This document shows positions 1,655-62,542 of a stretch of 64,000 nt of DNA, piece after piece; positions within the stretch are counted from its first letter, which is position 1; each line of letters begins with the position of its first letter. The stretch spans positions 39,663-103,662 of the forward strand of contig JAUXVJ010000024.1 of the NCBI GenBank assembly GCA_030684515.1, read 5' to 3'. The position numbers and the translations under genes are program-made. Origin of the DNA: Actinomycetota bacterium. Lineage in GTDB: Bacteria > Actinomycetota > Actinomycetes > S36-B12. The notes below the pieces were generated by a model. The model was not told where the DNA came from, made no database searches, and worked only from the letters and a program-made list of their open reading frames with translations.

Positions 1655-1858
1655 CACGCGGGAGAGTCTGGCGTTCATTTCGGTGAACGGCAGCGCCGAA
1701 GGAGCAAATCTCCCCGACAACCTCTCAGGCAAACGGACCGCATGGGGAAGGCACCTCTGGAAGGCGGGCTTGCGCCCCACCGACGGTGAAACTGATGCGC
1801 GAGCATCGGGAAACTCTCAGGTCGCGATCCAATCGCGGGCAACAGAGGGGGAGAAGGC
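1655..1858 (+). promoter_or_regulatory. Tandem glycine riboswitch (two aptamers) in the gcvP leader
   Basis: Aptamer 1: GGGAGAG...CGCCGAAGGAGCAA...CTCAGGCAAACGGACCG. Aptamer 2: CTCTGGAAGG...CACCGACGGTGAAA...CTCAGGT...GGCAACAGAGGGGGAG. Sits immediately 5' of the gcvP ATG. Confidence 0.85.
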
Positions 1859-1887
1859 ACAACCGTGCCCTCGACCCGGGGAGAGTC

Positions 1888-4758
1888 ATGTCCGAACGCG
1901 AATTCAGCTTTGTCGATCGCCACATTGGTCCAGATGAGCCTGCTGTCGAGCACATGCTTGCCACCCTTGGCTACGCCAACCTCGATGCGTTCACCTCTGC
2001 TGTAGTCCCCGAAGTCATCGCCTGGACTGATGCGCTCGAACTACCAGCGGCCGTGGATGAGTTCGCGGTGCTGGCAGAACTGCGCGCGATTGCAGCGCGC
2101 AACTCAGTGAAGACCAGCATGATCGGACTGGGCTATTCCGATACCCATACGCCAGCAGTGATCAGGCGCAATGTCCTTGAGAATCCCGCTTGGTACACGG
2201 CCTATACGCCATACCAGCCTGAGATCAGTCAAGGTCGGCTCGAGGCACTCCTGAACTTCCAGACGATGATCGAGGATCTCACGGCTCTGCCAGTCGCTGG
2301 ATCCTCGCTCTTGGACGAACCCACTGCAGCTGCCGAGGCGATGGCGCTCAGTGTTCGTCAGGGACCCAAAGGAGTGCAGCGCTTTCTCGTGGATGCGGAC
2401 ACGCATCCGCAGACTCTTGCGGTGCTCAACACGCGTGCAGAGCCTATGGATATCGAGTTGATCCAAGCCGATCTCAGTCAGGAGTGGCCAAGCGGACCGT
2501 GGTCGGGCGTGCTGATCAGCTACCCCGGATCGTCCGGAATCGTCCCCGACTTAGGCGCACTGATTGCCAGGGCTCATGATGCCGGAGCGCTTGCAGTTGT
2601 TGCTGCCGATCTGCTGGCGTTGTGTGTGTTCACACCTCCAGGTGAGCTGGGAGCCGACATTGTGATCGGCTCTGCACAGCGTTTTGGCGTGCCGATGGGC
2701 TTCGGTGGACCGCACGCCGGCTATATGTCGGTTCGCGCAGGCCTTGAGCGCTCGCTGCCTGGTCGACTCGTCGGCGTGAGTCTTGATGCTGATGGCAACC
2801 CTGCATATCGACTGGCGTTGCAAACTCGTGAGCAGCACATTCGCCGAGAGAAGGCCACAAGCAATATCTGCACTGCACAGGTGCTGTTGGCGATCATCTC
2901 GGCGATGTATGCCAGCTACCACGGCCCAAGCGGGCTCACGGCCATTGCGCAACGTGTGCATCGAAGCGCCTTGGTGCTGCGCACCGGCTTGCAGCGTTTG
3001 GGGGCCACGACTTCGGAGGCGCCGATTTTCGACACAGTGCAGTGGCAGGTGCCCGGCAAGGCGGATGAGATCTGTGCAGCAATCGCAGACAATGGAGTCA
3101 ACATTCGCGTCGTGGATGCGGACACCTTGTCGGCGTCAACCGACGAACTGACACAGGCTGAGCATGTGCAGATCATTTGGGATGCAACCGCTCAGGCTCT
3201 TGGTCTGAACAGCACTGCAGATCTGACCACTCTTGAGAATGAAGTCGTGAGTTTTGCTACGCGCACCTCATCCTTCCTGCAGCATCCGGTCTTCAATACA
3301 CATCACAGCGAGACGTCGATGATGCGCTACCTGCGCAAACTTGCCGATCGCGACATCGCCCTCGATCGAGCCATGATCCCGCTGGGTTCATGCACGATGA
3401 AGCTGAACGCGGCAACGGAGATGGAGTCCATCACCTGGCCAGAATTTGCCGGATTGCATCCCTTTGCTCCGACCGGCGATGCAGCGGGATCCATTGACTT
3501 GATTCAATCCCTAGAACGGTACCTCGCAGAGATCACTGGTTACGACTACGTCAGCGTGCAGCCCAACGCCGGGTCTCAAGGCGAGTTCGCAGGACTGCTC
3601 GCCATCCGTGCCTATCACCACTCAAATGGTGAGCACGCCCGAAATGTCTGCCTGATTCCCAGCAGCGCTCACGGCACCAATGCCGCAAGTGCAGTGATGG
3701 TCGGCATGCGCGTGGTCGTCGTGAAGTGCGATGAGTACGGAAATGTCGATCTCGATGATCTCAACTTGCGGATAGCCGAACATGGCCCCCAACTCAGCGC
3801 CTTGATGATCACCTATCCATCCACACATGGCGTGTTCGAGACTGCAGTAGCCGACATCTGCGCGCTGGTGCACGACGCGGGTGGCCAGGTCTACGTCGAT
3901 GGCGCAAATCTCAATGCCCTGGTCGGGCTAGCCAAGCCCGGGCGATTTGGGGCTGACGTATCGCATCTGAACCTCCACAAGACTTTCTGCATTCCGCATG
4001 GAGGCGGTGGTCCAGGTGTTGGACCTGTTGCAGTGCGTGAGCACTTGGCGCCATTCCTGCCCTCGCATCCCTTGCGACCAGAAGCCGGACCCTTGGGTCG
4101 AGGCCATCGCGATGGTGGAGTAGGTCCGGTCAGCGGCGCGCCTTGGGGGAGTGCAGGCATTCTGCCAATTCCTTGGGCCTATATCCGAATGATGGGTGCC
4201 GAGGGTTTGAAGCGCGCAACTCAAGTGGCCATATTGTCGGCGAACTACATCGCCAGGCGACTCAACGATCACTATCCCGTCCTGTATACAGGCAGCACCG
4301 GACTTGTGGCGCACGAATGCATTCTGGACGTCCGCCCGATCACTTCGGCGACTGGTGTCACGGTGGACGACATCGCCAAACGACTGATGGATTACGGCTT
4401 TCACTCGCCGACAATGTCTTTCCCGGTGGCAGGAACTCTGATGATTGAACCCACGGAGTCCGAAGATCTGCTCGAAATTGATCGCTTCATTGACGCGATG
4501 ATCTCCATCAAGACGGAAGTCGATGAAGTTGCGGCCGGAATCTGGCCACTTGAGGACAGTCCTTTGCGCAATGCCCCGCATACAGCCGATTGCGTCATCG
4601 GGGATTGGGACCACAGTTACCCGGCCAGGCTTGGCGCCTTTCCCGCTGGAATTGCCCAGGCTGATAAATACTGGCCGCCTGTCCGGCGTATCGATGGCGC
4701 ATATGGCGATCGCAATCTCGTGTGCAGCTGCCCAAGCCCCGCTGAACTCGCAACGTGA
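1888..4758 (+). CDS. gcvP: Glycine dehydrogenase (aminomethyl-transferring), glycine cleavage P protein
   Basis: 956 aa from ATG 1888 ([15 protein letters not shown]), preceded by a GGGGAGAG SD. PLP-lysine region [18 protein letters not shown]. The longer ORF start at 1786 lies inside the riboswitch. Confidence 0.95.
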
Positions 4759-10835: not shown

Positions 10836-12110
10836 ATGCAGCCGGAAGCCGACCACTGGGAGGGCCCGATGACATTGGCTCCCGTGCGTGCGGATGCGGC
10901 ATCAAGCGTGCGCAGCAAGGGCGCCTGGGCGATCGTTGGCGCCACGTTCATCATGCTGGCGTTCAACACCGGATTTGGCTTCTATGCCCTGGGAGCCTTC
11001 AACCGCGGCTACATCGACAGCGTTGGGATGAGCGTCTCTGCCACATCTGCCGGAGCCACCATCTTCTTGCTCGCCGGCGGAATATCCGGTTTGTTTGTCG
11101 CTCGCCTCATGAAACAGGTGGGCATTCGATGGCTCCTACTGGCCGGCACCGTCGGCTCGGCCGCGTGTCTGGCCATGCTCGGAGCTGTCACCCAGGTGTG
11201 GCAGATGTGGGCCGTCTTCCTGATCTTCGGTCTGGTTTCGGCTGGCTTCTCGATGATTCCCACTTCAGCAATGGTGCTTGGAGAATTCGCCGAGGAGTCC
11301 GTCGCCCGACCCATGGCAGTGATGGCCACCGGCTTCTCGGTTGGTGGAGCGGTGCTCGCGCCGATCATCACCGCAGTTGTGCTGAGTTTCGGCATCGCCA
11401 CTGCAGGCATAGCCATGGCCTTGACCTTGCTCGTCGTGATGATTCCGCTTTCGATCGCAGCCACTGGCCATGAACCGCGCATTGGCAGCGCCACATATGT
11501 TGCGACCAAGGTTGAAAAGGCGACTGGCAAGGAACAGCACGGCAGTGGTGGATGGCCGTTCTTTGGGGTCTGCATCGCCTACAGCCTGCTACTCATCACT
11601 CAGGTCTCGGTCGTCATCCATTTGCTCACTTTGGCCACCGAGCGGGGGATTGGCGGCGCCGCCATCACCTTGTCCCTGTTTGCCAGCATGGCCTTTGTTG
11701 GTCGGCTCATCGGGCTGGCGATCATGCCCCGCTTCACTCTCCGATCACTGAGTGTGGTGATGGCCGGCCTACAGGTGCTCGCGCTCTGCATCCTGGCCTT
11801 CTCCGCCGACCTCATGTGGTTGGCGATCGGAGCCGCCCTCATGGGATTGCCATCGGGCAACAATCAAGTGTTCATGCCCCTGTGGCTGCTGAATCTGTTC
11901 GGTGCGGCTCGCTACCCGACAGTCTTTGCTCGTTCGAACCTCATCACCGGATTCAGCGTTGCCCTCGGCCCGCTCTATGTCGGCGTCGTGCATGAGTCCG
12001 CTGGAAACTACCAACTGCCATTCCTGGTGCTGGCTGCCAGTGCCGTCTGCGCGGGGGTGATCATCGCGACTCTGCCGCACAAGGGAGCGACAGATCACGA
12101 AATGTCATAA
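10836..12110 (+). CDS. MFS transporter (12-TM type, substrate unknown)
   Basis: 424 aa with a continuous hydrophobic-segment profile. Start uncertain (alternative ATG at 10869). The stop codon TAA lies inside the island direct repeat. Confidence 0.75.
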   Translation: MQPEADHWEGPMTLAPVRADAASSVRSKGAWAIVGATFIMLAFNTGFGFYALGAFNRGYIDSVGMSVSATSAGATIFLLAGGISGLFVARLMKQVGIRWLLLAGTVGSAACLAMLGAVTQVWQMWAVFLIFGLVSAGFSMIPTSAMVLGEFAEESVARPMAVMATGFSVGGAVLAPIITAVVLSFGIATAGIAMALTLLVVMIPLSIAATGHEPRIGSATYVATKVEKATGKEQHGSGGWPFFGVCIAYSLLLITQVSVVIHLLTLATERGIGGAAITLSLFASMAFVGRLIGLAIMPRFTLRSLSVVMAGLQVLALCILAFSADLMWLAIGAALMGLPSGNNQVFMPLWLLNLFGAARYPTVFARSNLITGFSVALGPLYVGVVHESAGNYQLPFLVLAASAVCAGVIIATLPHKGATDHEMS

Positions 12111-12129
12111 TGTGCATTATCGGCGTTAG
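12108..12129. repeat. Left direct repeat (attL-like) of the 5.1-kb insertion
   Basis: TAATGTGCATTATCGGCGTTAG. The same 18-mer TAATGTGCATTATCGGCG plus TTAG recurs at 17210-17232. Confidence 0.7.
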
Positions 12130-13330: not shown

Positions 13331-13561
13331 CTAGCCCTTGGACGACTTTGGATCTCGGCTCTTTGGATAGGTATTGCGCTCACCAATGGTGCCGTCCATC
13401 TTCTTGATGACGTGCTCCACACCGCGCTCCTGCGCCATTTCACGACCTCTTGCTTGTGCATCAGCCTTAGTTTGGGCGGTATTTGATGCCCGTTCGTTCC
13501 CTTGCGGGCGGTTCTTCCATTGACCGTCTTCGTGGTAAGTCTCGATGTCACCCTTTGCCAT
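13331..13561 (-). CDS. DUF2188-domain protein
   Basis: 76 aa. Pattern MAKGDI..Y..DGQW....G..RAS....TKA.A.A.GREMA.ERGVEH.I...DGTI...NTY is typical of DUF2188. Confidence 0.6.
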   Translation of the reverse strand: MAKGDIETYHEDGQWKNRPQGNERASNTAQTKADAQARGREMAQERGVEHVIKKMDGTIGERNTYPKSRDPKSSKG

Positions 13562-14186: not shown

Positions 14187-14591
14187 TCAAGTCGCAGGAG
14201 TCTCGACTTCAAGAAATTCGCCACAATGCTTGCATTTCTTGGCTACCGCCAGAATTTGTTCGCCGCAAAATGGGCATTTTTTGTCAGGACTGTTCAGAAC
14301 CAATGAAGGCAACTGATTTGGGGCAAGAGTTGCCAGTCGAGGATCAGGAAGATTGGTGGCTACTTGAGCGGTGTGGACTCCTGCATTGGTATTGCCCTGC
14401 GGCCCCATGATTGCTACTACAACTGCGGCCGGAATGATGAAGAAGAATGCGATCCAGAACCAAGCTCGGTAACTCCTCCCCTTCTTCTCCGCTGCCCTGG
14501 CCACCATCTGTATCAGTTTGATGTAGCCCCAAATTAGAAGCACTGTGATGACAATTCCGATGACAATGCCTATGAAACCTGCTGCGTTCAC
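14187..14591 (-). CDS. Membrane protein with C-terminal zinc ribbon
   Basis: 134 aa with a GTG start. Two N-terminal TM helices, then CPFCG-x13-CKHCG. Confidence 0.55.
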   Translation of the reverse strand: MNAAGFIGIVIGIVITVLLIWGYIKLIQMVARAAEKKGRSYRAWFWIAFFFIIPAAVVVAIMGPQGNTNAGVHTAQVATNLPDPRLATLAPNQLPSLVLNSPDKKCPFCGEQILAVAKKCKHCGEFLEVETPAT

Positions 14592-14672: not shown

Positions 14673-14903
14673 GTGTCATATGAGCCGACAGATGCCGCCA
14701 TCGCGGGGCGTGCTGTGCTTGGCTCAAGGTTGCGATCGCATCGTGAATCAAAAGGTATGACTCAAGAACGATTAGCCCTAGACGCTGGCCTTGATCGCTC
14801 ATTTCTCGTTGACGTTGAGGCTGGTCATCACTCTCTGATGCTTGATCGAGTATTTGACTTGGCACACGCACTAGGTGTCAGTGCTGCCGATCTCGTTAAG
14901 TAA
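14673..14903 (+). CDS. XRE-family helix-turn-helix transcriptional regulator
   Basis: 76 aa with a GTG start. LRSHRESKGMTQERLALDAGLDRSFLVDVEAGHHSLMLDRVFDLAHALGVS is a Cro/C1-type HTH. Confidence 0.8.
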   Translation: MSYEPTDAAIAGRAVLGSRLRSHRESKGMTQERLALDAGLDRSFLVDVEAGHHSLMLDRVFDLAHALGVSAADLVK

Positions 14904-15304
14904 CCCCTACGGCATCAAAGTTTAGAAATTTTCAGGGAGTATTCATACGTATTCCTAGCCATATCAGGCTCCTAGATAGTGCGGCCTTTATTTTGTGAAC
15001 GGATTTACGGGGATCACAATTAGTCAGATCTGACGTTTCCCAAAGCCATCACAGTCACATTTACGCCTACCCGGGATGCAGGTAGGAAGTGATCTCAAGG
15101 GGGATTATGTGGAAGTGGCTTATACGACCGTTGTCTTTAAGTACCCCCGCCTTTGGCGGGATGCTCACTGCGTTCGCATTAATGAAGGATTTTCCTAGTC
15201 AGAAGGAAGGGGGCCCTTTTCTCTGATCATCAAAGAATCAAATTCTGCCGACCGTAGGGAGGCTCACCATGAGCGTCAGCGAATGGTGACTTGCTACATA
15301 TAAG

Positions 15305-15579
15305 TAGAAAAATTGTAGGTACTAGATGCAGTTGTTGGAAAAGACCTAGTACCTACAAGACTGTAAAGGATTTAGACATAGTTTAGGTTTAGTCCAATGG
15401 AACAACACAATTTAAGACTTAGTCACAGAAGTGAATGGAAATCCCAAGATCATCGTTTGTACTCGACTTACGCAGACCCGTGGTGGCAACTTTCACTTGC
15501 GACCCGTACTCCTAGCCCCTTGCTTAAACATTCCAACAACTGCATGCGCATCGCAGCAAAACCATTGCTACTAAAGCCA
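15305..15579 (-). ncRNA. Candidate structured 3' UTR / ncRNA ending in an intrinsic terminator
   Basis: No ORF of 60 aa or more. Contains a perfect 15-nt long-range complementarity (15531-15545 against 15326-15340), a 13-bp terminator hairpin and several local hairpins. Confidence 0.3.
15308..15358 (-). terminator. Rho-independent terminator (minus strand)
   Basis: Perfect 13-bp stem TTGTAGGTACTAG / CTAGTACCTACAA with a 20-nt loop, followed on the minus strand by TTTTT (15312-15308). Confidence 0.6.
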
Positions 15580-15768
15580 TTATACAGGAATTTGAGACAA
15601 AATGTCTGGGCCCAATTCTTGGTTCATGGCTGTCGCGGGGTACTCGAAAGCGTGTCTCTCAACTGCCTCAAGAATGGGTTCGCTTCTCATTAGTGCTTGC
15701 CATCTTGACTCGTGGATCTCTTCTTGAATTGCTAGGAATATTGCTTCCTCGTTTGAAATGGGCTTCAT
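15580..15768 (-). CDS. Small hypothetical protein (62 aa), downstream of the TIR-like gene
   Basis: ORF with helical-looking composition and a weak SD. Preceded by a sigma70-like promoter. Coding status uncertain. Confidence 0.35.
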   Translation of the reverse strand: MKPISNEEAIFLAIQEEIHESRWQALMRSEPILEAVERHAFEYPATAMNQELGPDILSQIPV

Positions 15769-15916
15769 TCACATACCTGACTTCTATCCTTTAGGTCCCT
15801 TCCTAAAGCGACATAACCAAGGGAGACCACGATCTATTGCTGCTCGTAGATTGATTCTCTGAGGAGTGAGGCTACAACGCTCTGAACACTCAGATATCGG
15901 TCAATTCGCTAGTCGA

Positions 15917-15945
15917 ATTATAGCAGAAATATTGTGCACTCACAA
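15917..15945 (-). promoter_or_regulatory. Sigma70-like promoter on the minus strand
   Basis: Minus strand reads TTGTGA - 17 nt - TATAAT (+ strand tcacaa 15940-15945, attata 15917-15922). Confidence 0.4.
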
Positions 15946-15996
15946 TGCCCAGAACACAAGAAAGACCTTTGTTTGCAAGGACTTTCTCCGCCTTCA

Positions 15997-16869
15997 TTAC
16001 ACAATCTTGCTTAGATCGACGTGGATGGTCGCGGCAGCCAATTCCTTCGCAAGTAGGAGTTTCCATACGCCTTCGGAGTCAAGCCCGACGTAGACGATTC
16101 CATCAACATCTGAGGGCTTTTCGATTCCATCATCAAGAAGCACGACAACTCTGGAACGTCCCAAAGCAGCGAAGAAGAAGCCCATTTCGAATACCACGTT
16201 CTGGCGACCGCGAAGCATGAGATCGGAGTCAGTTCCCTTGTGTCGGCCCTCGTCATCAGCAGTCAGAATCACGACTGCAAAGGCCGCTGATCCAGCATGA
16301 TCTTCGAACTTCTCGATCAAAGTTCGACCACGATTGGGCTGTTCATGCAATATCACGACCTCGCGGCCTGTCGCTTGCTCCAGCATTCGAGCAACCTCGA
16401 CCTTGCGCACATCGTCCGAGCCGTGCACTAGAAAGATGGAGCCATCCATCGGGCGCTCAATGGATGTATCCTGCGGTGGATCGAGGGATTCTTTCTCCCA
16501 AAGTGGGAGTCTGTCCGCAATCGACGTCAGTTGCCTGAGGTAGTCGTCAATTTCGCTCCGAAGATCATCGACTCGCTGATTGACCGTTAGTGGCTCTCCG
16601 AAACCCCCTATCGAGAAGTGGGTTCGATACAACTCTGCGCTATTGATGCCTAGCAACTTGGAGATCAATGCTCCATTGAATTCGTGCCATGTCTGGACTT
16701 CATTCTCCAAACGGTCGAGCACAACGCTATTCATCCTTGACGACAACTGACTCTTCAATTGCTCGCCCTTGAGTTTCTGGGCGTCAATTTTTGTCTTCGC
16801 GGATTCAAGCGATCCAATAAGAATGGGGCTCCTAGGTTCATCACTCTTTGAGACAGCCCTCTTAGCCAT
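15997..16869 (-). CDS. TIR-like domain protein (CAP12/Pycsar-effector-type TIR, COG4271) with an N-terminal coiled-coil domain of unknown function
   Basis: 290 aa. The C-terminal ~150 aa read IFLVHGSDD..VEVARMLEQ..GREVVILHEQPNRGRTLIEKFEDH...AFAVVILTADDEG...RGRQNVVFEMGFFFAALGRSRVVVLLDDGIEKPSDVDGIVYV, matching the family pattern including the FE(L/M)G glutamate. No sensor domain or cyclase was recognised. Confidence 0.75.
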   Translation of the reverse strand: MAKRAVSKSDEPRSPILIGSLESAKTKIDAQKLKGEQLKSQLSSRMNSVVLDRLENEVQTWHEFNGALISKLLGINSAELYRTHFSIGGFGEPLTVNQRVDDLRSEIDDYLRQLTSIADRLPLWEKESLDPPQDTSIERPMDGSIFLVHGSDDVRKVEVARMLEQATGREVVILHEQPNRGRTLIEKFEDHAGSAAFAVVILTADDEGRHKGTDSDLMLRGRQNVVFEMGFFFAALGRSRVVVLLDDGIEKPSDVDGIVYVGLDSEGVWKLLLAKELAAATIHVDLSKIV

Positions 16870-17209: not shown

Positions 17210-17232
17210 TAATGTGCATTATCGGCGGTTAG
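17210..17232. repeat. Right direct repeat (attR-like) of the 5.1-kb insertion
   Basis: TAATGTGCATTATCGGCGGTTAG. Differs from the left copy by one extra G. Confidence 0.7.
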
Positions 17233-23130: not shown

Positions 23131-23579
23131 CCGTCTCGCTCAACTGAGCGGGTATTGAAGGGGTCGTCATTCTCATGAATGACGACCCCTTCAACGATGT
23201 CACCACTGCCACCCCAGCTACGAACACGCCAATTCATTCCACCTGATGGCGTATTGAGATTGGTGAATGGTGCCGCAAGACGTGCTTGCACTCCGGGCAC
23301 GAACAGCAGCAGGGCAGCGATATCGGTCCAAAATCCGGGGATCATGAACAGCACTCCACTCAGCATGCGGAAGGTGATGGCCCGGCTTGGCGCCGCACTC
23401 CTTTTGGCTGCAGCCAGCGCAGCTCGTCCCGCGTTGCGAAAGACCATCCAGCCGATCGGTATGCCGATGAAGGAGATGAACAGTGCCCATCCCCAGCCAA
23501 ACCAAGTGACGAAGAAGAAGAAGGTGACGATCTCCAGCAATGGATAGCCGAAGATCACCAGGCGACGCAGGAAGGCCAT
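23127..23579 (-). CDS. fxsA: FxsA-family membrane protein
   Basis: 150 aa. N-terminal GYPLLEIVTFFFFVTWFGWGWALFISFIGIPIG. Synteny with ppm1/lnt as in mycobacteria. Confidence 0.75.
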   Translation of the reverse strand: MAFLRRLVIFGYPLLEIVTFFFFVTWFGWGWALFISFIGIPIGWMVFRNAGRAALAAAKRSAAPSRAITFRMLSGVLFMIPGFWTDIAALLLFVPGVQARLAAPFTNLNTPSGGMNWRVRSWGGSGDIVEGVVIHENDDPFNTRSVERDG

Positions 23580-56346: not shown

Positions 56347-56432
56347 GTCCGGGTGGCGGAATAGGCAGACGCGCTAGCTTGAGGTGCTAGTTCCCTTTAC
56401 GGGGAATGGGGGTTCAAGTCCCCCCTCGGACA
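56347..56432 (+). tRNA. tRNA-Leu (anticodon GAG), class II with long variable arm
   Basis: Acceptor GTCCGGG/CTCGGAC. Anticodon stem-loop CTAGC-TTGAGGT-GCTAG. Variable arm TTCCCTTTACGGGGAAT. T arm GGGGGTTCAAGTCCCCC. Discriminator A. CCA not encoded. Confidence 0.9.
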
Positions 56433-56438
56433 CGCTCT

Positions 56439-56871: not shown

Positions 56872-57115
56872 CTGCCTCGGAAACTATCGCGCGGACAGGC
56901 GAGGAGCGGGCGAATCACCCTAAGCGGCCCTGGACTACCCACGACCCGCTTTGCAGGCATGACTCCATTCGCATCGCGGGTCCGTACTCATGCTTTGTGC
57001 AGGTGGGCGTGTACCGGAATATCCGCGACTGCCACGACTAGCAGACCTAGGCTCGTGGATCGCGCGTGCATTCCGCCGCCCAATCGGATGAAATGAAATC
57101 CCGTAACCTGCACAC

Positions 57116-57559
57116 ATGAGCGACCTCAATGAGATCGGCGAGCGTGACGGCTGGCGATGCTGGCTGTGCGATGAACCTGTCGACCCCGAGGCATCCGTCA
57201 ACGCAGATCGCGGCCCGAGCATTGATGGTGGCTTGTCACCCAAGGGCAAGAAGGCTTCCGCAGCATCCGAGCGTCTCGCACACCGTTCCTGCAACACACG
57301 CAAGGGCAAGATCACGCCCGTCGTGCCGTGGTCTTCAGACTTGTTCGTGGTTGATCCGGCCCCGATCGTGTCTACCGTCGATCGGTTGACCCGCAAAGGT
57401 GGCAAGGAGGTCGTGGCCCGCTGCCCCAGCCAAGCCGACGCCGATCAGGCGGCCGAGTGGCTCGTTGACCGAGTCTCCCGATTCGCGCCGGACTTGGCAG
57501 TGGCAACTGAAGTCCAAGCCGGCGGCGGGCAGTTCCTGCTGGTGCTTCGCGCGCTTTGA
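57116..57559 (+). CDS. HNH-like protein (degenerate motif) with unknown C-terminal domain
   Basis: 147 aa. WRCWLCDEPVD...PSIDG...ERLAHRSCNTRKG resembles CxxC...DH...N..H..CN..KG, but lacks the first His and the Asn. Confidence 0.55.
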   Translation: MSDLNEIGERDGWRCWLCDEPVDPEASVNADRGPSIDGGLSPKGKKASAASERLAHRSCNTRKGKITPVVPWSSDLFVVDPAPIVSTVDRLTRKGGKEVVARCPSQADADQAAEWLVDRVSRFAPDLAVATEVQAGGGQFLLVLRAL

Positions 57560-57609
57560 ACTGCTGATTCGGCGTGACCGCCGAGCTGACGGTAGAACGA
57601 TTCAGGAGA

Positions 57610-58584
57610 TCAGTCCTCATCAACAATCGTCAACAGGACATTGCCGATCTTCTGGCCAGTCTCGACGTAACGGTAGGCGTCCACGATCTCATCCAATGGA
57701 TACGCCCTGTCGATGACCGGCTTGAACTGACCTGAGTCGATCAGGCCGCGAAAATACTCAGCAAGTTCCCTGTCGAATGACTGCGGGATGGGCAGCATCG
57801 CCTTCTTGGACCGCAACAGCGGAGTTGTCAGTGCCAGGATCGGATTCTGGGCCCAAGGCCCCAAGTCAGTGGTCGCGTAGATGCCACGCGGCTTCAACAA
57901 CGGCTTGCATTTGCCGAAGGTGCTCTTGCCAACCGCATCGAATACCAGGTCGAATCGTTGCTCGTCTTTGGTGAAGTCCTCGGCCAGGCGATCGATGACT
58001 CGATCCGCACCCAATCCCTTGACGAGTTCAATGTGCTGGGTGTCGCAGACTGCAACCACATTGGCGCCCACGACCTTGAGCAATTGCACAGCAGCACTGC
58101 CAATGGCTCCCGTGGCTCCGTAGACCAGGACATCGTCGCCGTTGCGGACCCCAGTCTTGCGAATTGAGGCCAAGGCGTAGTGGGAAGCCTCCGTACTGGC
58201 TACGGCCTGCGCGAAACTCAGATGAGAGGGAATGGTCGCCAGTGGTCCGTCTTCTGCGATCGACAGGTACTCCGCATGAGCCCCCCATCCGCCCTCGTTG
58301 TAGCCGAAGATCCGGTCGCCAACTGCGAATCTTGATACCTGCCCACCGATGCTTTCGATGACCCCTGCGAACTCAGTTCCGAGTACCGTGAACTTGGGCC
58401 GCGCGAGTCCGCTGAAGAGTCGAACGATCGCTGGCTTGCCAGACCTGAAGCCACAGTCGGTCCGATTCACGGTGGCGAGGTGGACTTTGATGAGCACGTC
58501 ATGCTCGCCAGTAATGGGCTCTGGAATATTGCGAACCTGGACGACTTCAGGAGGACCGTAGATGCTGCCGACGGCTGCCTTCAC
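57610..58584 (-). CDS. NAD(P)-dependent medium-chain dehydrogenase/reductase (quinone-oxidoreductase-like)
   Basis: 324 aa with a GTG start. GYNEGGWGAHAEY, VLVYGATGAIGSAAVQLLK Rossmann motif. Confidence 0.85.
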   Translation of the reverse strand: MKAAVGSIYGPPEVVQVRNIPEPITGEHDVLIKVHLATVNRTDCGFRSGKPAIVRLFSGLARPKFTVLGTEFAGVIESIGGQVSRFAVGDRIFGYNEGGWGAHAEYLSIAEDGPLATIPSHLSFAQAVASTEASHYALASIRKTGVRNGDDVLVYGATGAIGSAAVQLLKVVGANVVAVCDTQHIELVKGLGADRVIDRLAEDFTKDEQRFDLVFDAVGKSTFGKCKPLLKPRGIYATTDLGPWAQNPILALTTPLLRSKKAMLPIPQSFDRELAEYFRGLIDSGQFKPVIDRAYPLDEIVDAYRYVETGQKIGNVLLTIVDED

Positions 58585-58724
58585 AGGTCCACCTTATTGG
58601 CCAGGCAGGGCGATATTCCCTCAGATCATGGGCCCGAAACCGACTGCTCCCTCATTCTGCTGGTGGCAAGCTCACGAGCCGCGTGCTTTGCATCTGAGCG
58701 ATTCAGGTAGATTGGCTCCCAGCA

Positions 58725-58808
58725 ATCGAGGGGCGCTGCGACGGGCGAACACCCGCCACGCTCGATGTGCGCACGACAGAACAAGGGCGCCTCCGGTCTT
58801 GGAGGCGT
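58725..58808 (+). promoter_or_regulatory. Probable SAH riboswitch (metH motif) with SD-sequestering hairpin
   Basis: P1 ATCGAG/CTCGAT (58725-30 / 58761-66). Conserved core GAGGGGCGCTGCGAC. P2 CGGG-cgaaca-CCCG. The 3' tail GCGCCTC (58787-93) can pair with GGGGCGC (58730-36) as a pseudoknot, or with the SD as GCCTCC-ggtctt-GGAGGC (58789-58806). ATG at 58811. Confidence 0.55.
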
Positions 58809-58810
58809 GA

Positions 58811-61800
58811 ATGTTCGAACCCCAGATTCGTCCTGATGCAACAGATGTCTTGACGCGCCTGCTTAAGGAACGCGTGCTGATTCTCGACGGCGCCATGGGC
58901 ACCATGATTCAGCGCTATACCTTCGACGAGGCTCACTATCGCGGCGAACGCTTTGCTGACTTTGCAGGAGATCTGCAGGGCAACAACGACCTATTGAGCC
59001 TTACACAGCCCGCCACCATCAGCGCCATTCATCGTGAGTACCTGGACGCTGGCGCGGATCTGATCGAGACCAATACCTTCAATGCCCAGCGGATCTCACT
59101 CGCGGATTACGCCTTGGAAGACCTCGCCTATGAGTTGAACTACGCGTCAGCTCGTCTGGCTCGAGCACAATGCGATGAAGTCACAGCACTTGATCCCTCA
59201 CGACCTCGCTTTGTAGCGGGAGCGGTCGGACCCACAACGCGTACTGCGTCCATCTCCCCCGATGTCAATGATCCCGGCGCGCGCAACGTCAGCTACGAGC
59301 AGCTCGCAACGGCATATCTCGAACAGGTAAATGGGCTCGTCGATGGCGGTGCAGATCTGCTGCTCGTGGAGACCATCTTCGACACCCTCAATGCCAAGGC
59401 CGCGATCTTCGCTATTGAAACTCTGTTCGAGGAACGAGGGCGACGCTGGCCGGTCATGATCTCCGGCACGATCACTGATGCTTCCGGACGCACGCTCTCT
59501 GGTCAGGTCACCGAGGCATTCTGGAACTCCATGCGTCACGCCAAACCGCTGCTCATGGGGTTGAACTGCGCTCTTGGTGCTGACGAGATGCGCCCATATC
59601 TGGCGGAGATGTCCCGCATCGCTGACTGCTTCGTGTCCTGTTACCCCAACGCCGGCTTGCCCAATGCCTTTGGCGAGTACGACGAGGCCCCTGAGCAGAC
59701 CGCAGCGATCGTGCGCGAGTTCGCTGAAAGTGGATTGCTCAACCTGCTCGGTGGTTGCTGCGGTACGACACCGGATCACATTGCGCGGATGGCGGAGTCC
59801 GTGGCAGGCATCACGCCGCGCATTCCTCCAGTGATCGAACCCGCCTGCCGGCTGTCTGGTCTTGAGCCGCTGACGATTGTTCCTGAGTCACTGTTTGTGA
59901 ATATTGGTGAGCGCACCAACATCACGGGCTCCGCACGATTCCGCAATCTCATACGCGATGGCGATTACGGCACTGCGCTTTCAGTCGCGCGCCAGCAGGT
60001 CGAGAGCGGTGCTCAGATCATCGACATCAACATGGATGAAGGCATGATCGATGGCGTCGCAGCCATGGATCGCTTCGTCAAGCTCGTTGCTTCTGAGCCT
60101 GACATCAGCCGCGTACCGCTCATGATCGACTCGTCCAAATTCGAGGTGATCGAAGCTGGGCTGCGTTGTGTTCAAGGCAAGCCGATCGTCAACTCGATCT
60201 CCATGAAGGAGGGCGAGGAGAAGTTCCGCCGCGAAGCGATCTTGTGTCGCAAATACGGTGCGGCGGTTGTCGTGATGGCCTTTGACGAACAAGGGCAGGC
60301 CGACAACCTCGAGCGTCGCAAGGCGATCTGTCAACGGGCCTACGACATCCTCGTCAACGAGGTTGGCTTCCCCGCTGAAGACATCATCTTCGATCCGAAT
60401 GTCTTCGCCGTTGCAACTGGCATCGAGGAGCATGCCAATTACGGAGTCGACTTCATCGAGGCAACTCGGTGGATCAAGCAGAACCTGCCCGGCGCCTTGG
60501 TATCTGGCGGCGTTTCGAATGTCTCGTTCTCATTCCGCGGCAACAACGCCGTGCGCGAGGCGATCCACAGTGTGTTCCTGTTTCATGCGATTGCTGCTGG
60601 CATGGACATGGGCATCGTCAATGCAGGTGCACTGGTTGTATACGACGAGATCGACGCCACTCTTCGCGAGCGCATTGAAGACGTCATCCTGAATCGTCGT
60701 GCCGATGCAACTGAGCGACTGCTTGAGATCGCGGCCGACTTCGCTGGAGATGGCATGAAGGTGGAAGGCGCCAACGAAGAATGGCGTGAACTTCCTGTCG
60801 ATGAGCGCATCACCCACGCCCTGGTCAAGGGCATCGACGATTACGCCGAGACTGACACCGAGGAACTTCGCCTGCTCATCCAAGAGCGTGGCGGCAGGCC
60901 CATCGAGGTCATCGAGGGTCCATTGATGGCAGGCATGAATGTGGTCGGCGATCTCTTCGGCGCGGGCAAGATGTTCTTGCCGCAGGTCGTGAAGTCAGCA
61001 CGCGTGATGAAGAAGGCCGTCGCCTACCTCATCCCCTTCATCGAGGCGGAGAAGCATCCAGATGACGCCGGCCGTAGCAACGGGCTGGTCATCATGGCCA
61101 CGGTCAAGGGCGACGTGCCCGACATCGGAAAGAACAGCGTCGGTGTGGTGCTTCAGTGCAATAACTATGAGGTGATCGACCTGGGTGTCATGGTGCCGGC
61201 GCAGAAGATTCTGGACGCCGCCAAAGAGCACAAGGCGGACATCATTGGCCTGTCTGGTCTCATCACGCCTTCACTGGACGAGATGGTGAATTTCGCCACG
61301 GAGATGGAACGACAGGGCTTGGATATTCCATTGCTCATTGGTGGTGCCACCACTTCGCGCGCCCACACCGCTGTGAAGGTCGATCAGAAGTATCACGGTC
61401 CGGTCGTCTGGGTGAAGGACGCATCACGTTCTGTGCCCGTTGTCGCCGCGCTGCTGTCGGATGACCAACGCCCGGCATTGCTCGCTGATCTGCAGGTGGA
61501 CTATGACTCGCTGCGTGAACGCTATGCAGCACGCGCCAATGCGAAGGTCATCCTGCCCATTGACAAGGCACGCGCCAACAAGACAGCGATTGAATGGTCT
61601 GGCTACCAACCGCCAAAGCCAGTCACACCAGGCGTGCAGGTGTTCGACGACTACTCCATTGCCGAGCTGCGTGAATACATCGATTGGCAGCCCTTCTTCA
61701 ATGCCTGGGAGATGAAGGGCAAGTTCCCCGACATCCTCAATAACCCAGCTTCCGGCGAAGCAGCACGAAAGCTCTACGACGATGCGCAGGTGATGCTCGA

Positions 61801-62542
61801 CCAGATCATCAACGAGAAGTGGCTGAAAGCCTCTGGCGTCATCGGCCTGTTTCCGGCCAACACGATCAACGATGACGACATTGAGGTGTATGCGGACGAG
61901 TCACGCACCGAGGTGCTCCAGACTCTGCGCGAAGTACGCCAGCAGAGCGAGCATCGCGAGGGAATCCCGCATCGCAGCCTCTCGGACTTTGTCGCGCCCA
62001 AGCATTCCGGGCTTGCGGACTACGTCGGTGCCTTTGCCGTCACCGCGGGGCTCGGCAGTGCTGCCAAGGTCATCGAATTCAAGGAAGCGCTCGACGACTA
62101 CAGCGCGATTCTGTTGGAGTCATTGGCTGATCGCCTTGCAGAGGCTTTTGCTGAGCGGATGCACGAGCGTGTGCGCAAGGAGTTCTGGGGCTACCAGCCT
62201 GACGAGCAACTCGACAGCGAGGAACTCATCAAGGAGAAGTACGTCGGCATTCGGCCTGCACCGGGTTACCCGGCCAACCCCGAGCACACCGAGAAGCAGA
62301 CGATCTGGCAGTTGCTTGATGTCCAGGCCAACACTGGAATCGAACTGACCGAGAGCATGGCCATGTGGCCAGGCGCGGCTGTCAGCGGTCTGTACTTCTC
62401 ACATCCTCAGTCGCAGTACTTCGTGGTTGGACAGATCGGTCGCGATCAGGTCACCGACTATGCCGCGCGCAAGGGGTGGACCGTCGCGGAGGCTGAGCGC
62501 TGGCTGTCGCCGAACCTCGGATACCGAACCGACGACGAGTAG
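58811..62542 (+). CDS. metH: Cobalamin-dependent methionine synthase (B12 motif reads GDVPDIG instead of GDVHDIG)
   Basis: 1243 aa with all five modules: Hcy ([15 protein letters not shown] Zn ligands), pterin, cap, B12 and AdoMet (RPAPGYPA). Codon 770 is CCC (Pro) where the His ligand is expected. Confidence 0.92.

Follow-up and report, generated by a model that had tools for sequence, protein, structure and literature searches.

Known antiterminators share nucleotides with one arm of the terminator, and the invertible-terminator mechanism is known mainly from Clostridioides. In Clostridioides difficile, the cwpV switch has 21-bp inverted repeats around 195 bp, and an intrinsic terminator forms where repeat and segment meet, in the OFF orientation only (PMC2784873); the flgB switch has 21-bp repeats around 154 bp (PMC5386303). 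Invertible sites typically carry inverted repeats of 10-20 nt, and the recombinase may be encoded elsewhere (PMC5903667). At the DNA level, a single template switch can produce a perfect inverted repeat and alter a hairpin, and such events are documented in bacteria too (PMC5453318; PMC8794818). In hok and AapA1 mRNAs, a 5'-3' long-distance helix can reportedly lock the fold of a short transcript until processing (PMC5416894, PMC6733600, PMC9841398).

The locus analysed here lies in the window (the whole stretch of DNA under analysis, 64 kb, from an actinobacterial MAG), downstream of a TIR-like gene on the minus strand. Its best reading, which we hold tentatively and at somewhat below even confidence, is an ordinary terminator, predicted to be leaky, with a templated 15-nt insertion at its apex.

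A terminator-like hairpin and the partner of its loop

Positions are those of the window, and A and A' denote the two complementary 15-mers.

15313 to 15358, minus strand: hairpin whose stem has 13 perfect base pairs, 5 of them G-C, and closes a 20-nt loop; candidate intrinsic terminator for the TIR/ORF62 transcript
15308 to 15312, minus strand: U-tract TTTTT, directly 3' of the hairpin stem, read from the sequence
15326 to 15340, minus strand: A', the 15-mer UUCCAACAACUGCAU, which makes up the last 15 nt (3' side) of the hairpin loop, with a 0-nt gap to the 3' arm
15531 to 15545, minus strand: A, the 15-mer AUGCAGUUGUUGGAA, which lies 190 nt upstream of A' and is its exact reverse complement
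15341 to 15530, no strand: 190-bp segment between A and A', holding the hairpin 5' arm (15346-15358)

The first-pass annotation had reported a perfect 13-bp hairpin followed by TTTTT on the minus strand and, in its loop, 15 of 20 nucleotides exactly complementary to a site 190 nt upstream; both were confirmed at the positions above. The stem arms (15313-15325 and 15346-15358, 13 nt each) are 100% complementary at a spacing of 20 nt, as are the 15-nt arms of the A/A' inverted repeat at a spacing of 190 nt. A' fills 15 of the 20 loop positions, the remaining 5 nt (GUCUU) all lying on its 5' side. The A/A' match is 15/15 Watson-Crick with zero G-U, and similarity stops sharply at either edge, which points to a signature of DNA copying rather than to a helix kept solely at the RNA level.

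The hairpin shares with canonical Rho-independent terminators a perfect stem, a direct U-run, the strand of the upstream genes and a convergent intergenic region. A stable G-C-containing stem followed by a U-tract is present (13 bp, 5 G-C, UUUUU; folding energy -20.2 kcal/mol), but the loop measures 20 nt rather than 3-10 nt (PMC2784873), and 15 of its bases have a perfect partner upstream; a loop in the short range (5 nt) is obtained only with the 15-mer removed. The terminator scan, whose rule was a loop of 3-8 nt, left the hairpin uncalled because its loop is 20 nt. The proposed intrinsic terminator thus fits in stem and U-run, but its oversized loop is outside standard models.

The 15-mer has no internal dyad symmetry, and an HTH operator was rejected since it is not palindromic. 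Within the 64-kb window, neither the 15-mer nor the stem arm has a further copy with up to two mismatches, and the inverted repeat's 15-mer, ATGCAGTTGTTGGAA, occurs only as the A/A' pair. Likewise, the fetched loci (543 kb, of which 10 kb lie past the window's far end) hold no further copy of the 15-mer. These searches bear on the idea, raised in the first-pass annotation as one that would undo its proposal, that the 15-mers are the termini of a repeated mobile sequence, for which no other copy appeared in the 64-kb window and 543 kb of fetched loci. In its specific form, a 220-bp miniature transposable element (MITE; 15326-15545) would have the 15-mers as its terminal inverted repeats. Perfect 15-bp terminal repeats, a MITE-like size and a mobile island would suit such an element, but it has no target-site duplication (flanks CTAG versus GCGC), it would have to include one hairpin arm by coincidence, no second 15-mer copy with up to two mismatches was found in the sequence just named, and blastn of the region against the phage and plasmid collections returned nothing. 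We consider it highly improbable.

Two further hairpins had been annotated between the 15-mers. The pair GGTCGCAA/TTGCCACC is present, but with one C-C mismatch (7/8 pairs), and GGATTT...AAATCC does pair, but over merely 6 nt, which is at chance level. The statement that no ORF of at least 60 aa lies between the sites had to be corrected: a 98-aa plus-strand ORF (15397-15693) overlaps the interval, although it has no homologue and was not called as a gene. An attC/integron site was rejected on inspection, as the sequence departs from the R''/R' consensus and the 190 nt between the 15-mers are not one long stem.

Island setting and searches for relatives

12108 to 12125, plus strand: left copy of an 18-bp perfect direct repeat, TAATGTGCATTATCGGCG, overlapping the MFS gene's stop codon; island boundary
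17210 to 17227, plus strand: right copy of the 18-bp perfect direct repeat; other island boundary
15997 to 16869, minus strand: TIR-like gene, 290 aa, candidate single-gene defence system (PF10137 CAP12-PCTIR_TIR, E = 4e-33; PADLOC PDC-S35, E = 2e-65; phrog_16442)
15580 to 15768, minus strand: ORF62, an orphan ORF of 62 aa that follows the TIR-like gene and precedes the noncoding stretch; a called gene in the Logan assembly
15524 to 15580, minus strand: candidate 18-codon ORF, MALVAMVLLRCACSCWNV then stop, whose ATG overlaps the ORF62 stop (TAATG) and whose codons 12-17 contain A
15579 to 15608, minus strand: weak promoter-like site, CAGACA-18-TATAAT, at the end of ORF62, where it overlaps the final codons and the stop
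15917 to 15945, minus strand: weak promoter-like site, TTGTGA-17-TATAAT (extended -10, TG), shortly after the TIR stop codon
14673 to 14903, plus strand: convergent XRE-type HTH gene, 76 aa (PF01381 HTH_3, E = 4e-11; PADLOC control-protein models)

The locus is part of a strain-specific, mobile defence island of 5.1 kb and low GC, which falls from ~60% outside to 45-53% between the 18-bp repeats. On clustering at 90% identity, seven of the eight island proteins looked up were singletons, and the cluster of the eighth held just two start-site variants of one gene. About 1.1 kb of the island (14904-15996) is without a recognisable gene. The only other assembly of the locus, a 55.5-kb Logan contig, is unbroken through the site, identical and in the same orientation. 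The next minus-strand gene begins at 14591, ~720 nt downstream and past the convergent HTH gene, to which transcription past the hairpin would be antisense. Both listed promoter-like sites are weak because sites of this kind are no commoner in the region than in shuffles (three found versus 3.7 expected); the one at 15579-15608, with its TATAAT at 15584-15579, would start an RNA of ~265 nt ending at the hairpin.

Protein searches gave the noncoding stretch and its small ORFs no relatives. ORF62 matched itself only among 5.8 billion clustered proteins and 1.84 billion representatives. Neither it nor a 68-aa ORF had a Pfam, PADLOC, PHROGs or NCBIfam match, and a 58-aa ORF had none in PHROGs or NCBIfam, the two scanned. 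The 18-codon candidate ORF, whose frame is covered by a stop-to-stop fragment ending at 15527, has no homologue. Within 14904-15996, all stop-to-stop frames reaching 25 aa were concatenated and compared with the 5.8 billion proteins; nothing came back at E <= 10, and a hidden or decayed gene in this interval was rejected for want of protein homology in any frame. The other island proteins had just generic zinc-ribbon or HTH matches in viral contigs. A retron (msr-msd) was also rejected, no island ORF having an RT domain.

At the RNA and DNA levels, Rfam gave chance-level matches only, both for the whole window at gathering thresholds and for 14900-16000 at E <= 10, and ARAGORN found neither tRNA nor tmRNA at the locus. 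An exact 28-mer spanning loop and 3' arm had no match in genome, metagenome or viral contigs, among which the source MAG is not included, and both stem arms with any loop of 3-30 nt had none in metagenome and viral contigs. The phage, plasmid, viral, metagenome and genome collections thus held no homologue for covariation analysis.

The TIR-like gene itself does have homologues, at 51-59% identity or lower, the nearest full-length one at 51%. No paper was found that uses the name PDC-S35; the label 'phage defence candidate' (PDC) is discussed in bioRxiv 10.1101/2024.01.29.577857. Across 85 TIR-homologue loci (80 of them genome loci), blastn and nhmmer found no similarity to the noncoding region. 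The longest complement between a loop and upstream sequence was 9 nt among the 60 loci with a placeable TIR gene end, versus 15 nt here, and no downstream noncoding element or loop-complement architecture travels with the PDC-S35/PF10137 gene in the scanned loci. The absence of complementarity at homologous loci, which the first-pass annotation had said would speak against a riboregulator, is thus formally what the scanned loci display, but the comparison is unfair to the RNA because the genes downstream of the TIR homologues are entirely different (DUF4238, a HicB-like gene, a terminase).

Competing folds of the predicted transcript

Nested-structure thermodynamics makes the A:A' duplex (-22.8 kcal/mol) and the hairpin nearly isoenergetic, energy gaps of 1-3 kcal/mol falling inside model error. 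In transcripts stopping short of the 3' arm the A:A' helix is predicted with P > 0.9. In full-length RNA the predicted outcome follows the 5' end: A:A' prevails with a 5' end at 15572 or 15579 (P 0.93-0.96) and the terminator with one at 15600 or 15768 (P 0.85-0.97). Shuffling A in silico restores the terminator (P = 0.97). The first-pass annotation had the two structures excluding each other, which the predictions bear out for the full 15-bp duplex against the hairpin; the exclusion is, however, purely steric or topological because the complementary site is in the loop and no stem arm is shared, and partial A:A' pairing of 7-10 bp could, on our own inference, coexist with the hairpin.

Such folds would be expected of an evolved cis-acting RNA in which A pairs with the nascent loop and sterically blocks the 13-bp stem, giving antitermination, or in which the long-range helix closes an ncRNA of ~200 nt. 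Whether A is available would depend either on ribosomes translating the 18-codon ORF, which TAATG couples to ORF62, or on which 5' end is used. We judge this pair of alternatives, taken jointly, unlikely. They are favoured by the energies and the early predominance of A:A', by the modelled dependence of the dominant fold on the 5' end, by the recovery of the terminator when A is shuffled, by the position of A within a small ORF with a start codon overlapping the stop of ORF62, and by the promoter-like TATAAT at 15584-15579. Like terminator/antiterminator attenuators and riboswitches, the locus would have two exclusive folds, one of them a terminator, with the competing strand transcribed first. 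It differs from them in that the competitor pairs with the loop and in having no aptamer, Rfam family or regulated downstream ORF. In attenuators the alternative helix uses stem-arm nucleotides, but A' (15340-15326) is wholly in the loop, so neither arm is sequestered and the hairpin can still nucleate. No same-strand gene lies directly downstream to be regulated, the next starting at 14591, and as a sensor there is no Rfam match at E <= 10 and only the candidate 18-codon ORF, which overlaps A and is without homologue.

Other results also weigh against a selected RNA switch. To our knowledge, the loop-mediated pseudoknots and kissing contacts described so far are shorter and less clean than a perfect 15-bp helix without G-U. 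The folding energy of the noncoding RNA is no better than that of shuffles (z = -0.77), so that the intervening RNA is no more structured than expected, the energy differences are within model error, promoter-like sites are no commoner than in shuffles, and no homologue was found, hence no covariation. A more elaborate version appears quite unlikely to us: a 'loop-invasion' antiterminator in which the distal strand pairs with the nascent loop, the rigid 15-bp helix bars closure and a leader ORF gates the process, tuning read-through from the TIR-like gene into the island. We know of no description of such loop-gated cis-regulatory logic for intrinsic terminators. No independent result supports or refutes a selected riboregulator or ncRNA, as first proposed.

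The long-range helix also invited comparison with type I toxin-antitoxin mRNAs, in which the 5' region pairs with the 3' end. The 15-bp A:A' helix (-22.8 kcal/mol, predicted) resembles this pairing, and the locus shares with hok and AapA1 a helix between the 5' region and the transcript 3' end, but here the partner lies in the terminator loop rather than in a 3' tail, there is no toxin ORF and no antisense RNA gene was identified. A type I system was rejected: 15305-15580 encodes no small hydrophobic toxin peptide, and none of the minus-strand small ORFs (18-27 aa) in 15305-15580 is transmembrane-like on inspection.

Origin of the paired 15-mers

Chance was gauged with 100 first-order Markov shuffles of the 64-kb window, counting inverted repeats that were perfect over 15 nt or more and had arms at most 400 nt apart; 0.03 were expected per 64 kb and two were observed, the second being a plain hairpin at 23155-23194. 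An expectation of 0.03 per 64 kb amounts to about two chance repeats per 4-5 Mb genome, so that the repeat alone is less extreme than the 10^5/4^15 of the first-pass annotation. The rarer part is that one arm lies wholly within the loop of a 13-bp hairpin, for which our own arithmetic (~6 x 400 position pairs x 4^-15, by hand rather than as tool output) gives a joint expectation of ~10^-6 to 10^-5 per hairpin. Pure coincidence, with a chance 15-nt inverted repeat happening to land in a hairpin loop, would gain from the number of such repeats per genome, and of many more across a multi-genome scan, and from the loop connection having been spotted post hoc. It sits poorly with an in-loop arm flush against the 3' arm of a perfect 13-bp hairpin and with the exact return of a canonical loop when the 15-mer is taken out, and we regard it as very unlikely.

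That return, like the sharp-edged perfect match, points to a DNA-level origin. Deleting the 15-mer in silico leaves a 13-bp stem, a 5-nt loop GUCUU and U5 (TTGTAGGTACTAGGTCTTCTAGTACCTACAA; -19.2 kcal/mol), a textbook terminator, and the hairpin minus its 20-nt loop and one CTAG is a perfect 22-bp palindrome, TTGTAGGTACTAGTACCTACAA, which places the extra bases precisely at the apex. On the insertion reading, the hairpin (15358-15313) and its U-run would be the intrinsic terminator closing minus-strand TIR-like/ORF62 transcription ahead of the HTH gene, and the 15-mer in its loop would be the product of a DNA-level event, an inverted copy of the sequence 190 bp away inserted in one step. The terminator or palindrome would have been canonical before, and the copy would have entered at its apex, probably either through a template switch in replication or through templated filler DNA synthesised when a break at the tip of the palindrome was repaired. 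With a bigger loop and a 15-bp long-range helix in competition, the terminator would be expected to lose strength and become leaky or bistable.

Since neither a sensor nor a conserved structure nor a regulated target is evident, we take the complementarity to be, most likely, a by-product of recent date that has not been selected, and not an evolved riboregulator. This agrees with the lack of an Rfam match, the z of -0.77, the want of relatives for either the region or ORF62, the absence of the architecture downstream of TIR homologues (9 nt versus 15 nt) and the setting in a strain-specific low-GC island. Several points stand against it. Classic template-switch events are intra-hairpin, with a source closer than 190 nt, a distance that therefore exceeds them here. 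On inspection, no microhomology marks a template switch at the insertion junctions. The direction and reality of the insertion are read from the present allele alone, and an evolved switch would look alike, with near-isoenergetic folds and A' emerging before the 3' arm. In comparison with documented template switches, the locus has the same one-step perfect inverted copy, sharp boundaries and association with a hairpin (PMC5453318; PMC8794818), but a source-target gap of 190 nt where theirs is within one hairpin.

The geometry also exactly suits a cwpV-type invertible terminator. If the 15-mers were recombination sites, 15341-15530 would be an invertible segment. The 15-bp inverted repeats would then be sites for a site-specific recombinase encoded elsewhere, with the terminator in one orientation only. 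A flip of the 190 bp would part the hairpin arms, so that transcription of the TIR cassette would either stop or run antisense to the HTH gene into downstream genes, and a population would be split between both states. The dimensions match known switches (15 bp around 190 bp; inverton range ~10-21 bp around 100-300 bp), the hairpin arms lie one inside and one outside the segment with the repeat in the loop, perfect identity and sharp edges are expected of recombination sites, and the island is a mobile defence island. In a model of the flip (15341-15530 inverted in silico) the local dG goes from -20.2 to -5.5, the hairpin is abolished and the probability that the 3' arm is locally paired drops from 0.78-0.94 to 0.03. 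The junction of the inverted form reads, in silico, TTGTAGGTACTAG-ATGCAGTTGTTGGAA-TGTTTAAGCAAGG.

Like cwpV and flgB of C. difficile, the locus has short inverted repeats, a promoter-less segment of ~190 bp and an orientation-dependent junction terminator, here in silico. The repeats are perfect and 15 bp long here but imperfect and 21 bp long there, and the present candidate inversion is at the 3' end of a cassette in an actinobacterial MAG, whereas the clostridial switch occupies a gene's 5' UTR. A recombinase was sought among the scanned island ORFs, the called genes within ~6 kb either side of the TIR gene, ten ORFs sampled at 34-63 kb and the called genes of the 10 kb past the window's end, and none was found. 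A single orientation was seen, the Logan contig being identical to the window; the terminator has no gene directly downstream on its strand; and the 15-mer has neither internal dyad symmetry nor a further copy in the window or the 543 kb of fetched loci. Inversion is, in our estimate, unlikely, though marginally less so than a selected RNA switch.

What the locus means depends on which of these readings holds. If the 15-mer is an insertion scar, the terminator is an ordinary one, yet it offers a tidy natural case of one templated insertion creating a bistable RNA. If the segment inverts, the cwpV-style invertible terminator would extend to actinobacteria, where it would put the anti-phage cassette of a defence island under phase-variable control. 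If the RNA pairing is selected, intrinsic terminators would be open to a new kind of gating, via the loop.

Hairpin, loop 15-mer and the surrounding island

The first-pass annotation described, on the minus strand, a perfect 13-bp hairpin followed by TTTTT, with 15 of its 20 loop nucleotides exactly complementary to a site 190 nt upstream. A repeat finder confirmed both points, and reading the sequence also confirmed the former, giving the minus-strand order ...CAGUC UUGUAGGUACUAG GUCUU UUCCAACAACUGCAU CUAGUACCUACAA UUUUU CUAC.... From the repeat coordinates, the loop 15-mer (A'; its upstream partner is A) fills the loop's 3' three-quarters, flush with the 3' arm and with GUCUU as the sole spacer to the 5' arm. 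Allowing up to 2 mismatches, the window has no second copy of either the 15-mer or the hairpin arm, and a MITE is an extremely improbable source.

In this uncultured Actinomycetota MAG (471-kb contig; NCBI proteins MDP22886xx, locus tags Q8M73_), GC content drops from 58-61% in the flanks to 45-53% between ~12.1 and ~17.2 kb. The stretch forms an island of 5.1 kb whose ends are att-like. Its insertion point is the stop codon of an MFS transporter gene, which the left copy of a direct repeat (12108-12125) overlaps. No integrase was found inside it, and its genes lie almost all on the minus strand.

Features of the hairpin and the island
12108-12125 and 17210-17227: 18-bp perfect direct repeat TAATGTGCATTATCGGCG, bracketing the low-GC stretch
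13331-13561, minus: DUF2188 protein (PADLOC candidate system PDC-S16, E = 3e-17; phrog_3220)
14673-14903, plus, convergent: XRE-type HTH gene, 76 aa (HTH_3, E = 4e-11; PADLOC 'control protein' models)
15313-15325 / 15346-15358, minus: hairpin arms, 13 nt, 100% complementary, 20 nt apart
15326-15340 / 15531-15545, minus: A'/A inverted repeat, 15 nt, 100% complementary, 190 nt apart
15580-15768, minus: ORF62, orphan of 62 aa
15997-16869, minus: TIR-like gene (PF10137, E = 4e-33; PADLOC candidate system PDC-S35, E = 2e-65)
Island, minus: 68-aa ORF
Island: zinc-ribbon membrane protein; 156-aa orphan; two further orphans

By sequence, the DUF2188 protein is a second candidate defence gene of the island. 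Seven of the eight island proteins compared with a collection of 15 billion proteins are singletons in its 90%-identity clusters, and the cluster of the eighth holds only two start-site variants of one gene. The 76-aa HTH ORF has no gene call in the Logan assembly, and its exact sequence is missing from the protein collection. This ORF and the zinc-ribbon membrane-protein gene point away from each other across a gap of only 81 bp, so the former may regulate the latter.

Chance expectation and conservation

Shuffling the window 100 times (Markov-1) gives 0.03 inverted repeats per 64 kb that are perfect over 15 nt or more and have their arms no further than 400 nt apart; the window itself has two. 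At this rate the A/A' repeat is unusual for one window, yet about two such repeats per genome would arise by chance, so the repeat alone is less extreme than the first-pass annotation estimated. The conjunction of a repeat arm with a loop is expected, by our own arithmetic, at roughly 10^-6 to 10^-5 for each hairpin. The truly improbable part is the coincidence of the 15-mer with the loop, rather than the repeat itself. The observation is real and non-random, with the loop association spotted post hoc, and we consider coincidence very improbable. The sole other such repeat in the window (23155-23194) is an ordinary hairpin, TTGAAGGGGTCGTCATTC-TCAT-GAATGACGACCCCTTCAA, with a perfect 18-bp stem and a 4-nt loop, 25 nt past the rbpA stop codon and without a U-tract; it sits between convergent genes, probably as a U-less terminator.

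The best full-length homologues of the TIR-like protein reach at most 51% identity, and the genes downstream of them vary between loci. Neither blastn nor nhmmer found similarity to the noncoding region in 85 TIR-homologue loci (80 from species-representative genomes and 5 of the closest homologues). In the 60 loci with a placeable TIR gene end, hairpin loops reach at most 9 nt of complementarity to the 400 nt upstream, versus 15 nt here; the 15-nt complementarity that the first-pass annotation proposed to seek in homologous loci is missing from these, although their different downstream neighbours make them no fair test of the RNA. The exact loop-plus-arm pattern had no match in genome, metagenome or viral contigs; the latter two collections also contain no instance of the two arms spaced by a loop of any length from 3 to 30 nt, and blastn found no match in phages and plasmids. 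Judged from these comparisons, the locus is an orphan, and its element does not accompany the family of TIR genes.

Possible RNA pairing and DNA inversion

A riboregulator or ncRNA with terminator/antiterminator logic had been proposed for this site. Predicted energies are -22.8 kcal/mol for the A:A' duplex and -20.2 kcal/mol for the hairpin. A:A' is favoured in transcripts cut just before the 3' arm (predicted P > 0.9 for every 5' end) and prevails in full-length RNA starting at 15572 or 15579, shortly after a promoter-like TATAAT (predicted P 0.93-0.96); with 5' ends at 15600 or 15768 the terminator prevails (predicted P 0.85-0.97), and with the upstream 15-mer A scrambled predicted P(terminator) is 0.97. 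In the model the two states are close in energy, with gaps of 1-3 kcal/mol that fall within its error. The proposed mutual exclusion is reproduced, because this nested-structure model favours either A:A' or the terminator, and is steric, because A:A' sequesters neither stem arm. In an H-type pseudoknot, a 0-nt linker across a 15-bp helix would leave no room for stem and full duplex together; partial pairing of 7-10 bp, we infer rather than compute, is probably compatible with the stem, so exclusion applies to the full duplex.

Around the locus, Rfam gave only noise at E up to 10, and a 301-nt minus-strand RNA (15600-15300) is no more stably folded than its dinucleotide-shuffled versions (z = -0.77). 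No coding remnant was detected in 14904-15996 at E up to 10 (surrogate blastx, all stop-to-stop frames of at least 25 aa), and ORF62 has no relatives in sets of 5.8 billion clustered and 1.84 billion representative proteins. An evolved loop-pairing antiterminator or ncRNA seems unlikely to us. The sole Rfam matches in the whole window, both away from the locus, are a glycine riboswitch and a tRNA. The riboswitch aptamer (RF00504, 1649-1750, plus strand, 65 bits) immediately precedes a 990-aa ORF (1786-4758), presumably glycine dehydrogenase gcvP, judged from typical glycine-riboswitch contexts. Past a tRNA-Leu(GAG) (56347-56433, plus strand), ORFs at 56935-62542 encode an orphan of 156 aa, a zinc-binding dehydrogenase-family protein and a B12-dependent methionine synthase, with no integrase or other island signs among the adjoining ORFs scanned.

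DNA inversion is a rival absent from the first-pass account: A and A' would be the repeats of a cwpV-type invertible terminator. Their 15 bp around 190 bp are inverton dimensions, compared with 21-bp repeats flanking 195 bp in the C. difficile cwpV switch, whose segment is promoter-less and has an intrinsic terminator at the repeat/segment junction in the OFF orientation only (PMC2784873), and 21-bp repeats around 154 bp in the flgB switch (PMC5386303). One hairpin arm lies within the segment and the other outside, and inverting 15341-15530 in silico abolished the hairpin (local dG rises from -20.2 to -5.5 kcal/mol, and the 3' arm is paired locally with P 0.03 instead of 0.78-0.94). [quoted passage not shown] A single orientation is seen, an independent Logan contig runs unbroken through the site, and no gene lies directly behind the terminator. 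Inversion is a rather doubtful reading.

Origin of the loop sequence

The A/A' match is Watson-Crick at 15/15 positions, has no G-U pair and ends abruptly on both sides. With the 15-mer removed in silico, what remains is a canonical terminator with a stem of 13 bp, a loop of 5 nt and U5 (-19.2 kcal/mol); with the 20-nt loop and one CTAG of 15313-15358 removed instead, it is a perfect palindrome of 22 bp around a central CTAG, TTGTAGGTACTAGTACCTACAA. These two outcomes locate the extra sequence exactly at the apex of a hairpin that seems once to have been an ordinary terminator, and the centring of the palindrome implies that the loop is bracketed by CTAG...CTAG, a direct repeat that looks like a 4-bp duplication around an insertion. 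Palindrome tips are natural break points. No microhomology was found at the insertion junctions. Template switching in replication is documented to produce a perfect inverted repeat and to alter a hairpin in one step, also in bacteria (PMC5453318, PMC8794818).

The element is real but unconserved and has no recognisable target; explanations other than those considered here take the remaining confidence. We tentatively favour an ordinary intrinsic terminator of the minus-strand TIR/ORF62 cassette that would have gained a templated, inverted 15-nt insertion at its apex, with a template switch as candidate mechanism, and the predicted consequence would be an unselected leakiness of the terminator.
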